Shown here: positions 28,904 to 44,188 of the stretch, one piece after another
How positions within the stretch are numbered: position 1 is the first letter of the stretch
How the letters are laid out: each line of letters begins with the position of its first letter
IMG/VR virus record: IMGVR_UViG_3300022917_000015
Span: 1 to 48,022 of that record
DNA length: 48,022 nt
DNA from: a virus
Taxonomy: Duplodnaviria; Caudoviricetes
Strand: one strand, 5' to 3'
Position numbers and translations under genes: made by a program
Notes under the pieces: generated by a model
The model's database searches: none
Told to the model about the DNA's origin: nothing
Seen by the model: only the letters and a program-made list of their open reading frames with translations

Positions 28904-29037
28904 GGGACAAACTCCCAATCGTTCGAATCGTTGAGGTCGAGATCCTCGACGGCCTCCGCCTCGCCCTCGGGCCCGAGCTCGGCGCGCTCGAGCAGCGCGA
29001 GGGCCGCGCCCTCGCCGGCGGGCTCGTTCTCGGTCAC
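28900..29037 (-). CDS. Small acidic hypothetical protein
   Basis: 4-nt stop/start overlaps on both sides. Confidence 0.5.
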   Translation of the reverse strand: MTENEPAGEGAALALLERAELGPEGEAEAVEDLDLNDSNDWEFVP

Positions 29038-29915
29038 GCGGCGCCCCCGATCGCCGCCTGCCGCTGCTCGGCCGCGGTCATGAGCAGCGCCCCGAGGCGG
29101 GCCCGTAGGTCGTCCGGGCTGAGGCCCGCGGTGCTCGGATCGTCCGCGAGCTCGACGAGCAACGGCGCCACATCGACGCCATGCTCGAGGGCAAATTCGC
29201 GGTGAGCCGGGCACACCTCGACGGGGCGCCCGAGCTCGCTGCCTCGCCCGCGGGGATCTCGGATCGTGCTTGTCAGACTTCGAAGAGATTTTTTAGATGG
29301 GTTGGGGAGGGTTGGGCTGGGATGCGCGCTCGCCCGCGTAGGCGCGGGCACGGGCGCGCCCTCGTGCGGGCGCTCGCCCGCGAGGCCGTCCCGTGGGACC
29401 GTCTCGCCGGTGTCACGCGAAATGTCACACCCGTCACGTGTGACATGTCCCGCGGTGTCACGTGTGACATGTCCCGCGGCGTCCCCGCCGGCGGTGAGCT
29501 CGGCCGATAGGCGCCGGACGGCGGCGAGCTCCAGGCGCTTGCGCTCGCGCTCGTCCTGTTTCCGGAGCCGGGCCTTCTGCCGCCGTAGCTCGATCTCCTC
29601 GGGCGCTGCCGAGTGATCGAGATAGTCGTGCAGTTTCCACCCGCCCTCCGCCGGCTCGACGAGGCCCGTGCCGCGCTGCCCCCCGGGCAGCAGCCGGCCG
29701 CACTCGATCAACGCCTGGAGCGGCTTGCGCCGCGCAGCGCGAGGCGCTCCAGGCAATGCGTCGAGCTCCTCGTCGGGAACAAACCCCTCGGTGTCGGGAT
29801 GTAGCGAGCAATAGCGTTTCATTGCCAGCCACATCGCGATCACGTCGTTGCCGCCGAGCTTCACCGCTCGGCACCACTTCTCGCCCCCGACAAATTCCTC
29901 TTTGATGAGGATCAT
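29034..29915 (-). CDS. Putative replication initiator (N-terminal wHTH, iteron-containing linker)
   Basis: TEGFVP...LIECG...GGWKLHDYLDH...RRQKARLRK pattern of phage replisome organisers; GGAGG RBS; internal DNA repeats. Confidence 0.7.
   Translation of the reverse strand: MILIKEEFVGGEKWCRAVKLGGNDVIAMWLAMKRYCSLHPDTEGFVPDEELDALPGAPRAARRKPLQALIECGRLLPGGQRGTGLVEPAEGGWKLHDYLDHSAAPEEIELRRQKARLRKQDERERKRLELAAVRRLSAELTAGGDAAGHVTRDTAGHVTRDGCDISRDTGETVPRDGLAGERPHEGAPVPAPTRASAHPSPTLPNPSKKSLRSLTSTIRDPRGRGSELGRPVEVCPAHREFALEHGVDVAPLLVELADDPSTAGLSPDDLRARLGALLMTAAEQRQAAIGGAA
29409..29479. repeat. Iteron-like repeats (gtcacgtgtgacatgtcccgcgg x2 plus TGTCAC partial copies); candidate replication origin
   Basis: Copies at 29433-29455 and 29457-29479, inside the initiator gene. 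Confidence 0.7.
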
Positions 29916-37837: not shown

Positions 37838-37929
37838 CACAGCCCCCAGGCGTGCCCCGCGCAGGCCATGCAAGCGAGCCACGCGAGGACGGTGAGGCCG
37901 CGCACCGCGACCCATGCGGCGGCCCTCAC
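37834..37929 (-). CDS. 31-aa TM peptide coupled to the integrase stop (not in ORF track)
   Basis: MRAAAWVAVRGLTVLAWLACMACAGHAWGLW; its GTG overlaps the integrase TGA. Confidence 0.5.
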   Translation of the reverse strand: MRAAAWVAVRGLTVLAWLACMACAGHAWGLW

Positions 37930-40307
37930 GAGGCCCCCTTGCGCTGCGCCCGGACGACCTCGAGCCGGACCGGCGCCGGTGGGGCAGCTCGGGCGGCCTC
38001 CGCGAGGCGGGCGACCTCCGCGGCTCGAGCGGCCTCCGCGAGGCGGGCGACCTCCGCATCGATAAGCGGTTCGAGCGCGCGCAGCGCCGTCCAGTTGCGC
38101 TTATCGTAGTAGGCCTGCCCTGCCGCCTGGAGGAGCTCCAGCGGGGTGGCCGGCGTGGTCACACCCGGGTGTGACCCTCGGTCGCTTCCGGTCGCTTCCG
38201 GTACAGGCTCACCCCCCGGATTTGCCGGGTTTTGTTTCCTCCGGTCGCCAAAGGCTGGATTTAGGTTCCAGCACCTCACGGTATGGGAGTTCGACCCTCC
38301 CCTCGCGCACTCAGCATCAAACATGCTCGATTTCTCATTCTCCGGAGCCGTCGAGCACTCGCCCGCGAGGGCATGGTCACACTCGGGGTCACACTCGTTC
38401 CGGGCGTTCAGTGGTTTCGAGTCGCGGTGGACTAGATCCGCGCCGCCGTCGTCCGCGTAGTCCACCCCGTCGCGCTGCCCCGCGCTGCCCTGCTGCTGCG
38501 CCGCAAACCGGGCGGCGAGCAACGCGCCCGGGGCGTAGCCCTCGACGATCTGGACGTACGCGCCGGCGGGCGTTGCCTCGCCGTTAGCCGGTCCGCGGGG
38601 CGGGTGTAACGGCGAGGTAACAGGATCCAGCCAGTCGCCCTCCGGCTCGCCCGCGGCGTTGCAGCTCACGCACGCCCAGCCGGACCGCTTGCCCGCCTGG
38701 ACGCGTGCGAGCGGGCGCTCGCACTCCGGGCACTGCGGCGCGGGTAGACGCGCGCCGGGGAGGTCAGCTCCCGGCGTGCTCGATGCTGGCCCCTGACCGG
38801 GCCCGTCGTTGTCAATTGCAGTCGCTTGCAACGGCTCGCCCCCGCCGAGCGGGTTGCAGGAACGGCCGCCGGTTGCAGGAACCGACGTCGGTTGCGCGCC
38901 GACCTCGGTTGTCGGTTCGCCGGCGGCGAGCTGCCGAGGCTCGGGCCCGGCGGCGAGCACCGCGGCGTCGAGCTCGCCCGCGACGTCGAGGCCCATTGCC
39001 TGATCGAGCGGCAGGTAGGGCGCGAGCCCGAGGTGCTCTATCGTCGCCTTGCTCCGGTTGTAGCGCGCGATCATCGTGTTCGACTCGTGCCCCGTGTGCT
39101 GGGCGATCGTTTCGTTGTCGATGCCAGCGAGCTTGCACCACGAAACGAACGTCGATCGGAGGTCGTGCTCGCGGAGGCGGCGCAGGCGCCCGGCGGTGAA
39201 CAGCAGCCGCTCGCGTTCCGTTCCCGAGATCTCGATGTGCCGTCGCAAATCGTGGGCGGCCTTTTTGTAGTTCGTGGCGGTGAGCCACACGAACGGACCG
39301 GCGAGCTCGGGGCGCAGGCGCTTGAACGCCTCGAGTACTTCGCCCGTGCCGGGCATGAGAACGAACATGAGCGCGCGGCCCGTCTTCGTGGCGGGCACGT
39401 TGAGAACCCACCGAGCCGGCATCCCATGCATGGGCGGCAGTAACTCGAGGTGCTCCCATCGGATGCGGAACGCCTCGCCGAGGCGCAGGCCCTCACGGAT
39501 GATGAATCCCCAAAGCACGCGATAGTCGATCGAGATCTCGCCGCAGCGCATGAGCCGCGCGTATTCCTCCGGATAGAGGAACGGAAACTCGGGCGCCTCG
39601 CCTTTGGCGAGGATCGGCAGCTTGCACACCGCCGAGAGCGGCCACGCGGGAATGATTCGCAGCTCGACGCCGATCTTGACGACGCGCCTGCATACTTGCG
39701 CGTAGGCCCGAAACGTCGAGTCTGTTTTGCAGTGCGCCCGCGCCGGTCGCATCGCGCGCCAATAGTCGTCATCATTGAACGTCGCGAGTGGCACGTTCTC
39801 GATGAACTTGCACAGATACTCGACGCGCGGCTCGTCGGTTGCCTCGGCGGATTTTTTGCCATAGCCCGCGTTTGGATAGAGGCGGGCGAGTTCCTGAGAA
39901 CACCACGCCCGCGCGAGCTGGCCCCACGTGACAAAGCGCGACGAGGCCTCGCTCGTTTTCTCGCGCGGGCGCGACATGACGACGTTTGCCGCAGCGATCG
40001 CAAAGTTGAATTTCTCCTCGTCGCCGGCGACGGCGGCCGCCTTGCGCATCAGATACGCGGCCTGCGCGCCGCGGCCGACCTTTACAAGCGCCTTGCGCAT
40101 CGCGGTGATATCGGCCAGGCGCGCGACCGCGAGCGCCCGGCGCGCCTGCGGCGGCCCGTACGACTCATCGATCGCGAGCTTCAAACGAAACTGTCGACGA
40201 TTGCCTCGCTTGCCCGTCGTGGGATCCTTGGGGTCCTCGAACCCCGCGCTGATCATCTGAGAGAACCCGCCCGCGACGGGTAGCAAACCACTTCGTACTT
40301 TGCCCAT
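37926..40307 (-). CDS. int: Tyrosine integrase (~793 aa) with a long C-terminal extension containing attP
   Basis: Catalytic R (GLRLGE), K (TKTG), HDLR, GH, Y (ARYN); ATG 40307 lies 1 nt after the upstream stop. Confidence 0.92.
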   Translation of the reverse strand: MGKVRSGLLPVAGGFSQMISAGFEDPKDPTTGKRGNRRQFRLKLAIDESYGPPQARRALAVARLADITAMRKALVKVGRGAQAAYLMRKAAAVAGDEEKFNFAIAAANVVMSRPREKTSEASSRFVTWGQLARAWCSQELARLYPNAGYGKKSAEATDEPRVEYLCKFIENVPLATFNDDDYWRAMRPARAHCKTDSTFRAYAQVCRRVVKIGVELRIIPAWPLSAVCKLPILAKGEAPEFPFLYPEEYARLMRCGEISIDYRVLWGFIIREGLRLGEAFRIRWEHLELLPPMHGMPARWVLNVPATKTGRALMFVLMPGTGEVLEAFKRLRPELAGPFVWLTATNYKKAAHDLRRHIEISGTERERLLFTAGRLRRLREHDLRSTFVSWCKLAGIDNETIAQHTGHESNTMIARYNRSKATIEHLGLAPYLPLDQAMGLDVAGELDAAVLAAGPEPRQLAAGEPTTEVGAQPTSVPATGGRSCNPLGGGEPLQATAIDNDGPGQGPASSTPGADLPGARLPAPQCPECERPLARVQAGKRSGWACVSCNAAGEPEGDWLDPVTSPLHPPRGPANGEATPAGAYVQIVEGYAPGALLAARFAAQQQGSAGQRDGVDYADDGGADLVHRDSKPLNARNECDPECDHALAGECSTAPENEKSSMFDAECARGGSNSHTVRCWNLNPAFGDRRKQNPANPGGEPVPEATGSDRGSHPGVTTPATPLELLQAAGQAYYDKRNWTALRALEPLIDAEVARLAEAARAAEVARLAEAARAAPPAPVRLEVVRAQRKGAS
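37987..38057 (-). repeat. 36-bp tandem duplication (AEVARLAEAARA x2) in the integrase tail
   Basis: Units start at 37987 and 38023. Confidence 0.9.
38157..38397. promoter_or_regulatory. attP arm-type sites GGTCACAC (inverted pair 38157-38176; direct pair 38375-38385 and 38387-38397) plus cggtcgcttc x2 at 38179-38198
   Basis: Repeats flank the tRNA-derived core on both sides. Confidence 0.75.
38254..38310 (+). other. attP: attP core: 3' half of tRNA-Leu(UAG)
   Basis: Anticodon arm ctgga-tttaggt-tccag, long variable arm, T-arm gggag-ttcgacc-ctccc, acceptor 3' strand ctcgcgc-a; no D-arm or 5' acceptor strand. Confidence 0.9.
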
Positions 40308-40308
40308 C

Positions 40309-40692
40309 TCAGAGACTCGACTTTCTTTGCGCGAGGCGATGCTGCTGGAGCCGCAGGGTAACGAGCAGCTCCCATCGCGCGGAGGCCAACGTTTGCGGGC
40401 AGTCTCTGTGCTGCGCGGGCAGCGCCAGGAACCCGGCACGAGCACCGCCGAGATCTTCAGGCCAATTGACGTTGCTGCTCACGCCGCAGCGGTGACAATG
40501 AAACCAGATCTCGACCCGCTCGTCGCCCTCGCGATCGGGCTCGGGCGTTAGCCAATAGAGGCCCACGCGCCACGGCTCCGCGCTCGGCGCGAGTCGGTCG
40601 ATCTCGGCGCGCAGCGCCGCGGCCTCGCTCGTCTTGCGCTGCTCATCGGCGAGGGCGGCCCTCGTCGCCTCGGTGCTCCAAACGGACGGCAT
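40309..40692 (-). CDS. Hypothetical protein
   Basis: TAATG overlap. Confidence 0.55.
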   Translation of the reverse strand: MPSVWSTEATRAALADEQRKTSEAAALRAEIDRLAPSAEPWRVGLYWLTPEPDREGDERVEIWFHCHRCGVSSNVNWPEDLGGARAGFLALPAQHRDCPQTLASARWELLVTLRLQQHRLAQRKSSL

Positions 40693-43574: not shown

Positions 43575-43898
43575 TCAAGCCGCCGACGAAATGTTCTCGC
43601 GGATGATGCGCGGATGCCGGGCGGCGATGCGGATCAACGCGAGGCCCGCGCCGTCGGGTGTCGTACGATCCTGCTCCCAATTTTGCAGCGTGCGCAGGCT
43701 GATCCCGAGCGCCTCGGCAAACTGCACTTGCGTGAGCTGGACGAACCGCCGCAGCGCTGCAACGTCGCCTCGCTGGAGCTTGCCCGCGCCGATGCGCTTG
43801 CGCTGCTCGCCCGAGAGCGCGCGCCCGAATGTCTCCGCAGTCCAGGCGGGGTTGTGATCGAGGTCGTTGGCGACCTCGCGGATCGGCTTTCTTTTCAT
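43575..43898 (-). CDS. XRE/HTH antitoxin-like regulator
   Basis: LRRFVQLTQVQFAEALGISLRTLQNWEQDRTTPDG; ATGA overlap with the toxin. Confidence 0.88.
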   Translation of the reverse strand: MKRKPIREVANDLDHNPAWTAETFGRALSGEQRKRIGAGKLQRGDVAALRRFVQLTQVQFAEALGISLRTLQNWEQDRTTPDGAGLALIRIAARHPRIIRENISSAA

Positions 43899-44188
43899 GG
43901 CTTGTTTCCCTTCAAAAACAGGTTGTAACGGGCCTGCTCGGCGCGGTCGGCGCGGCGAGCGCTGATGATGCGGATCACGTCGTCCGCGCGCTCGGTATAA
44001 ACGACCATGAGCACGCCGCGCCGGCTCATACCGAGGCGCTGAAACCGGTCCTCGGTGTCACTGTGCTCGGCGTCATACGCCTCGAGCACGGCGGCGCCCG
44101 GCGCAAACAAATCGGTCGCGTCGCCAAACGTGATCCCGTGCACTCGCGCGTTGCGAGCTGCCTTTTTCGGATCCCATTCGAAGCGCAC
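43895..44188 (-). CDS. brnT: BrnT-family toxin
   Basis: FEWDPKKAARN..HGITF.DA...EDRF..LG...VVYTER...IRIISARRA. Confidence 0.9.
   Translation of the reverse strand: MRFEWDPKKAARNARVHGITFGDATDLFAPGAAVLEAYDAEHSDTEDRFQRLGMSRRGVLMVVYTERADDVIRIISARRADRAEQARYNLFLKGNKP

Follow-up and report, generated by a model that had tools for sequence, protein, structure and literature searches.

The integrase gene and its attachment site

The window (the whole stretch of DNA analysed here, 48,022 nucleotides of IMG/VR record IMGVR_UViG_3300022917_000015) is the complete, circular genome of a soil phage of the Caudoviricetes, with a 127-bp terminal repeat and genes for a terminase, a portal, a major head protein and a tail sheath. 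Its tyrosine integrase gene spans the phage attachment site (attP), and the integrase protein ends in a conserved module encoded beyond that site. In integrated relatives this module is found as an orphan, and excision in silico fuses integrase and module again in frame. This layout is real, and a swap of the C-terminus on integration is well supported.

The open frame on the minus strand covers 37926–40445. The likely start is the ATG at 40307, which gives a protein of 793 amino acids (aa), because homologues align from there and a co-occurring relative diverges exactly upstream of this position; a GTG start upstream, at 40445, was rejected on the same two grounds. The protein is a tyrosine recombinase, with conserved HDLR and TGH motifs and a conserved catalytic tyrosine, Tyr416, and its residues ~243–420 match Pfam family PF00589 with 39.9 bits against a cut-off of 27.1. 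In the AlphaFold model, the core has an N-terminal three-stranded domain (likely arm-binding) in addition to core-binding and catalytic domains. The best fold matches of this core are lambda Int, XerA and Cre.

An earlier reading of the window from its letters only (the sequence-only reading) had placed the catalytic tyrosine near 39060, with a long open frame beyond it. Both points are confirmed – Tyr416 is encoded at 39060–39062 and the frame stays open to 37926 – but the tail is 377 aa long, not ~350. Judged by composition, the chance of 377 open codons is ~0.0015, and the remaining five frames contain 3–10 stops. Third-position GC in the tail is 0.72–0.92, except near the attachment site (att), where it is ~0.65–0.77. 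Contigs from three runs have identical letters over att and the module; two of these runs may be where the window itself comes from. Runs with small word shares were left out as evidence of habitat.

The integrase frame reads a fragment of tRNA-Leu(TAG) antisense. The stems of the fragment pair, and its anticodon loop (38260–38266) falls at residue ~683, downstream of Tyr416, which is the attP-in-int layout of phage Mx8. The predicted crossover region is the 7-nt sequence TTTAGGT. ARAGORN and Rfam called no tRNA in this region of the window because the copy is only a fragment. In the six phage copies examined, the T stem pairs 5/5 despite differences in sequence; across six aligned phage att regions, a 13-nt core is invariant, as are the GTCAC repeats that flank it on both sides. 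An attP within the integrase frame, a tRNA-Leu(TAG) target and a likeness to Mx8 had all been claimed from the sequence, and all three are supported. GTCAC/GTGAC repeats like those of the att arms, among them a direct repeat of ~24 nt, also occur at 29409–29475 within a replication-initiator gene (29034–29915, phrog_2447), and are possibly iterons.

Table 1. Features of the integrase region, in window coordinates
Feature	Position	Strand	Remarks
Tyrosine integrase gene, free-phage form, spanning attP	37926..40307	-	793 aa
Folded integrase core, residues 1–440	38988..40307	-	Pfam PF00589, AlphaFold, fold matches, identity among close relatives
Variable linker, predicted disordered, residues ~441–630	38420..38987	-	19% mean identity, pLDDT <50
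CPEC...CVSC zinc-ribbon-like cassette, optional, residues 526–549	38661..38732	-	Predicted beta hairpin
Direct pair of GGTCACAC repeats	38375..38394	+	116 and 128 nt right of core; predicted arm-type sites
attP homology block, 3' part of tRNA-Leu(TAG), anticodon stem to acceptor stem	38255..38310	+	
Inverted pair GGTCACAC / GTGTGACC	38157..38176	+	90–102 nt left of core; predicted arm-type sites
Conserved C-terminal module, residues ~720–793	37929..38150	-	Lost on integration
36-nt tandem duplication, lengthening the module's second helix	37984..38055	-	Private to the window phage

The conserved C-terminal module

A protein search gave a close set of 38 sequences including the query, 36 of them full-length. 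Every one of these 36 reads through the antisense tRNA fragment. The fragment is translated in frames that differ from one relative to another: at the loop it gives NLNP or EPKS, and at the T arm CAR or VRE. Despite this, all 36 come back to a single conserved end. This end lies 89–138 aa beyond att (median 101, n = 36). The distance from the catalytic tyrosine to att is 71–334 aa (n = 36), with 264 aa in the window protein. The close relatives are on average 72% identical to the window protein over the core, 19% over the linker and 48% over the end module. A search of annotated phages gave a single match, at 29%.

The conserved end is a unit of ~55 aa, modelled with a predicted local distance difference test score (pLDDT) of 92.6 as a helical hairpin plus a terminal helix. 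Its predicted shape is a helix, a turn and a long helix, then a short linker and a final amphipathic basic helix, and its consensus is a helix, a G-x-W turn, a second helix, VVSL-x-x-A-R and basic residues. In the AlphaFold model of the whole protein the core is folded, residues 447–521 and 556–719 are disordered, and residues 720–790 mostly have pLDDT >90. An iterated profile made from the last ~70 residues of the integrases matches 37 of the 38 close proteins and 55 of 144 distant ones, and none of 1820 shuffled sequences reaches 13 bits. The single close homologue without the module end is a cut fragment, and many of the module-negative proteins terminate in tRNA-derived text. In 82 of 92 proteins, VVSL-x-x-A-R sits 5–15 residues before the end; the two final residues are unconserved. 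The sequence-only reading had overlooked this module, which is the piece that the swap removes.

Searches for the identity of the module were largely blank, which does not show that its fold is new. The 33 members scanned against Pfam gave no match, PF02151 included; PDB sequences gave designed helical proteins only; the ESM Atlas and Foldseek gave nothing informative; and a VIA fold search returned generic helical hairpins with Z up to 6.5. UVR hairpins dimerise. The UVR hairpin of UvrB/UvrC (PF02151) has a similar hydrophobic pattern and cross-scores weakly – 5 of 10 host UVR stretches score 8.7–15.2 bits with the module profile, and the hhalign probability is 1.7% – but the module has an extra terminal helix. 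One protein of 453 aa (P0039) has a non-integrase N-terminus followed by linker, att text and the end module, possibly through deletion of the integrase core in a related phage.

Integrated relatives and excision in silico

A profile search with the integrase returned 1,901 clusters (at 50% identity) with E ≤1e-3, the weaker matches being uninspected, and 397 with E ≤1e-30. At the stricter threshold, 148 of the 383 Polyangiaceae genomes have a match. The best 31 genomic loci are integrated forms. At 22 of these the integrase frame overlaps a complete tRNA gene (17 antisense, 5 sense), one abuts a tRNA, and at 8 no tRNA was called, 4 of these 8 lying at contig ends. The tRNAs overlapped at these 22 loci are those for Leu, Lys, Phe and Glu. 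Three genomes (G348, G090 and G166) have the integrase antisense at tRNA-Leu(TAG), in the form predicted for the window phage. Displaced tRNA fragments of integrated relatives stop at the anticodon loop, and the displaced repeat ends there in both G090 and G348. One contig of G348 (G348:C87, L085–L087) has tandem islands at a single tRNA-Leu(TAG), with two integrases that are nearly identical. The inner of these two integrases is frameshifted and stops within the displaced tRNA fragment.

The module, searched with a 33-row alignment at E ≤0.01, is found in 248 of the 383 Polyangiaceae genomes, mostly in short frames. The unpublished genomes G240 and G283 were counted only in this tally and in the host-tRNA comparison below. 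Among the 30 best orphan-module loci, 20 have a tRNA-like sequence in the 400 nt upstream and none has one downstream. Copies of the module 2–18 kb apart in two genomes (G355:C1, 8769402–8790091, and G354:C1, 3199041–3201324) suggest tandem arrays of islands.

Eighteen pairs were formed from the listed integrase matches and the listed module matches that are on the same contig and within 20 kb of each other, chosen irrespective of frame. The module always lies upstream of the integrase and on its strand, and each of the 18 islands has a direct repeat of 23–77 nt at both ends. Excision in silico across this repeat fuses integrase and module in frame in 17 of the 18, for which the chance at 1/3 each is ~1e-7. 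The targets called by ARAGORN include tRNAs for Leu (CAA, TAA), Lys, Phe, Arg, Gln and Cys, read antisense as well as sense. Four of five further islands at tRNA-Leu(TAG) also re-fuse in frame on excision. None of 13 islands that were checked has a stop between att and the module, and only one has an ATG there; the orphans are therefore unlikely to be separate genes.

Five of the islands (L126, L128, L130, L131 and L138) have a 5' tRNA fragment read in sense, yet fuse to the same module. This 5' layout is rare in the Islander statistics, with 159 of 3919 reported (PMC4383910).

Host and predicted prophage form

The sequence-only reading had pointed to a myxobacterial host, which the genome matches of integrase and module narrow to the Polyangiaceae. 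The sole genome matches in a collection scan were in one Polyangiaceae metagenome-assembled genome, and in a sample of the phylum the module was found in 13 of 401 genomes, all already in the Polyangiaceae set. The attP block is 82–83% identical to Polyangiaceae tRNA-Leu(TAG), but the search for a host tRNA did not yield the exact host in the genomes covered. Together these matches point to a member of the Polyangiaceae not yet sampled as the probable host.

With crossover at the anticodon loop, 683 residues including the whole catalytic domain are predicted to be kept and 110 to be replaced. The sequence-only reading had foreseen this exchange for text read antisense through the tRNA, and only its count, 109 codons, needs correction. 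New tails were predicted from 26 usable loci of the 29 Polyangiaceae tRNA-Leu(TAG) loci listed; two had a different loop flank and one ran off the locus. The predicted tails start with a sequence like P-x-R-L-P-I/V-P-P and are 11–210 aa long, with a median of 22. Replacement of the C-terminus with host sequence, with the core kept, is seen in relatives at ~31% identity and is predicted for the window phage.

The linker and its cassettes

The linker is a patchwork of cassettes, each common to a subset of the relatives. In contigs of co-occurring relatives from the same runs, its insertions and deletions are all in frame (net −60, +3 and −78 nt). A search for the origin of the cassettes elsewhere in the phage gave short, weak matches only.

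One of these cassettes holds the CxxC-CxxC motif that had been noted from the sequence, with CPEC at residues 526–529 and CVSC at 546–549. It is modelled by AlphaFold as a small folded beta hairpin (pLDDT ~75), and its Pfam scores are below the cut-offs. A CxxC-CxxC of any sort is found in 21 of the 36 close relatives, in three unrelated kinds, and in none of the 45 distant full-length proteins that have the module; the kind in the window protein, under a strict pattern, is found in 8 of the 36. Tails are 167–435 aa long in the close relatives and have a median of 181 aa in the 45 distant proteins. In a tree of 50 cores (the 36 close and the first 14 of the 45 distant), the close-set proteins with tails of at least 266 aa form one supported clade of 31 (96/95). 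All the CxxC-CxxC carriers are in this clade, making up 21 of its 31 members, but sister proteins differ and the label changes at least six times within it.

The long tail, the CxxC-CxxC motif and the tRNA-Leu target had been taken as the marks of a distinct variant, and a duplicated helix had also been noted. Each is present in the window phage, but that they define the variant is not supported. Tail length varies freely, CxxC-CxxC has been gained or lost repeatedly, two copies of the helix repeat are found in one of the 36 proteins, and tRNA-Leu is one among many targets. The long linker is a recent, disordered patchwork, and long tail, CxxC and duplicated helix are not core features.

Proposed mechanism and alternatives

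The explanation that we consider probable is that integration cuts off the ~55-residue module, which likely makes the enzyme of the free phage competent for integration, and that the prophage form keeps the core. A crossover in the anticodon loop of a tRNA-Leu(TAG) gene of the host would remove the module, and the prophage enzyme would retain its whole catalytic core, followed by a short stretch of junk. In the free form, the module would be a protein–protein tether on a flexible linker, and would help to build the complex of attP and attB. The tail-less form would be poor at integration and still able to excise, as is reported of Mx8, and excision would rebuild the full integrase gene. Recombination would thus switch its own enzyme, from an integrating form to a mainly excising one. 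Translated in whatever frame, the tRNA and arm-site DNA would act as a neutral spacer and so allow the family to switch tRNA targets, and the long linker and its CxxC cassettes would be tolerated passengers of one phage clade. The function given to the module is inferred. Mx8 IntP reportedly has reduced activity in its prophage form, as stated in the sequence-only reading, and the title of a 2003 paper by Tojo and Komano points to the same precedent.

Several results weigh against this explanation. Whether the module activates or inhibits is taken over from Mx8, which has an unrelated tail. No sequence match in Pfam or PDB explains what the module does, and its fold matches are generic. Direct proof of the swap comes from relatives of ~31% identity and not from the window phage: none of the 38 close homologues is in the prophage form, and no integrated copy of the window phage or its close clade was found in the genomes searched. 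The exact host tRNA was not found among the 383 Polyangiaceae genomes, where the best identity is 83%, nor the exact att pattern, within 3 mismatches, in any of 401 genomes of the class. No att junction (attL or attR) was among the matches listed for the contigs of four runs, and rare forms are lost from contigs. As to the islands, one of the 18 (L134) fails to fuse in frame, with a stop at the repeat, and another (L140) is in frame only at some crossover positions; in the fifth tRNA-Leu(TAG) island (G247:C42) the integrase ends before the tRNA and the module is absent.

A wider claim can be put forward tentatively. The Polyangiaceae elements may share, as a family, an undescribed covalent switch of directionality, with a detachable helical module that evolved independently of Mx8, is attached and removed by recombination and takes the place of a separate control of the excisionase type. 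The attP would serve as a neutral linker in any frame and on either strand, allowing retargeting to many tRNAs with the switch left untouched, and most of the integrases annotated in Polyangiaceae genomes would be the switched-off form.

It is rather unlikely that the module is instead a handle for a protease or unfoldase of the ClpX type, in which case the free integrase would be short-lived, or its complex dismantled, and integration would remove the handle and stabilise the enzyme. SspB tails bind ClpX, and in 4 of 5 Polyangiaceae genomes the SspB adaptor ends in PPYLRVVK or a close variant, loosely like PVRLEVVR of the window protein. The long disordered linker of the AlphaFold model would also suit the tether of such a handle, and C-terminal degradation tags are described as governing Int and repressor in the BPs-type switches of mycobacteriophages (PMC3694055). 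The family consensus VVSL-x-x-A-R, however, lies 5–15 residues from the end and is predicted to be helical rather than a terminal SspB-like strand, the last two residues of the module are unconserved, and a degron would not need a conserved helical hairpin. In the Polyangiaceae SspB proteins (L143–L146), the terminal LR-x-V motif is also present as an internal copy.

Nor do we think it likely that the module is a brake, one that restrains the free enzyme or biases it away from excision. Its removal would then give a more active, excision-ready enzyme, and the orphan might act in trans from the opposite end of its island. The swap is equally compatible with this direction, and no excisionase family was found by Pfam among 20 neighbouring open reading frames, by which absence is not proven. 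The precedent of Mx8 points the opposite way, and the orphan modules have no consistent start codon (none in 4 of 13, ATG in 1 of 13).

A functional role for the long tail with its zinc ribbon, for example as an extra domain that binds DNA or a partner in both forms, is improbable. The three unrelated kinds of CxxC-CxxC in 21 of the 31 long-tail clade members could reflect repeated selection, and the window cassette is modelled as a small folded hairpin. Against such a role, the motif is absent from 15 of the 36 close and all 45 distant full-length proteins, with at least six gains or losses. The cassette also precedes att and so is not swapped, and the linker around it is 19% identical and tolerates in-frame deletions of 60–78 nt in co-occurring relatives. 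Read-through as an accident of GC-rich DNA, with the conserved end due to a constraint on the DNA (arm sites, a terminator), is largely refuted and hardly credible: high GC does make stops fewer, and in a few family members the frame closes no later than att, but the end is conserved as protein over integrases ~31% identical, in both orientations and at many tRNAs, frame changes inside attP are compensated, and the frame is restored in 17 of 18 islands.

Relation to known systems

Lambda has its attP outside int and relies on Xis and host factors for direction. The window integrase resembles lambda-type integrases that use tRNA anticodon-loop sites in its three-domain core, in the predicted arm-type repeats on both sides of the site and in the predicted crossover at the anticodon loop, a named class of tRNA site (PMC4383910).

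The nearest known layout is that of Mx8. In Mx8, and also in Mx9, attP lies within int, and integration is reported to make a new 3' end that alters the enzyme without inactivating it (PMC6070905). Like the window integrase, Mx8 Int/IntP (AF396866) is a tyrosine integrase from a temperate phage of myxobacteria and has attP downstream of the catalytic tyrosine; a tRNA-like stretch is again read antisense, and it lies ~118 residues from the end compared with 110 here. A pairwise alignment covers no more than the catalytic motif (43 aa at 33%, E 8e-4), Mx8 gave no match in the search of annotated phages, the tail beyond the tyrosine is 179 aa in Mx8 and 377 aa here, and the Mx8 tail does not match the module, scoring 2.8–4.4 bits against module profiles. 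The host of Mx8 is Myxococcus rather than a member of the Polyangiaceae, and the family described here uses many tRNA targets in both orientations. On these alignments the window integrase appears to work like that of Mx8 without being of its lineage, because only the catalytic motif is shared and the Mx8 tail is unmatched to the module. The C-terminus of Mx8 Int (L077) has a single CxxC near its end, in the swapped part and unrelated to the window cassette.

The suicidal integrases of archaea (SSV1, pTN3, pT26-2) also have att within int, tRNA targets and a gene split to the two ends of the element, but there Int(N) is parted from the catalytic Int(C), and the gene is described as inactivated (PMC8371274). 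In the window integrase, by contrast, the core and the catalytic tyrosine would stay in one frame, and only the accessory C-terminal module would be orphaned. In the BPs-type switch of mycobacteriophages, recombination likewise edits a C-terminus and alters the behaviour of the protein; attP is there in the repressor gene and a short degradation tag is removed (PMC3694055), whereas here the gene is the integrase and the piece is a folded module of ~55 aa with a linker.

The principle is known from Mx8, and what is new is a family-wide detachable module in an unrelated lineage. Until now, attP within int has been regarded as a peculiarity of Mx8/Mx9 and of SSV-type elements in archaea (PMC6070905, PMC4383910, PMC8371274), with Mx8 and SSV named as having integrases that extend across attP (PMC4383910). 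The layout is unmentioned in the accessible portions of a 2026 myxophage preprint (10.64898/2026.09.14.751636) and of PMC12884075, and no paper on this integrase family or its module was found in the open-access literature. In the unrelated bacterial family described here, with ~1,900 clusters (50% identity, E ≤1e-3), attP within int is the rule, and a defined module, itself conserved, is what the swap exchanges. The question of the Mx8-type tail becomes a clean domain-deletion experiment. Integrases copied from Polyangiaceae chromosomes would be the tail-less form, and genetic tools for these natural-product producers, which are hard to engineer, would probably need the excised form. In 248 of the 383 genomes, the orphan module also marks the ends of islands.

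Elsewhere in the window, 43575–44188 encodes a toxin of the BrnT family (PF04365) with a partner like a helix-turn-helix antitoxin, a bacterial toxin–antitoxin pair.

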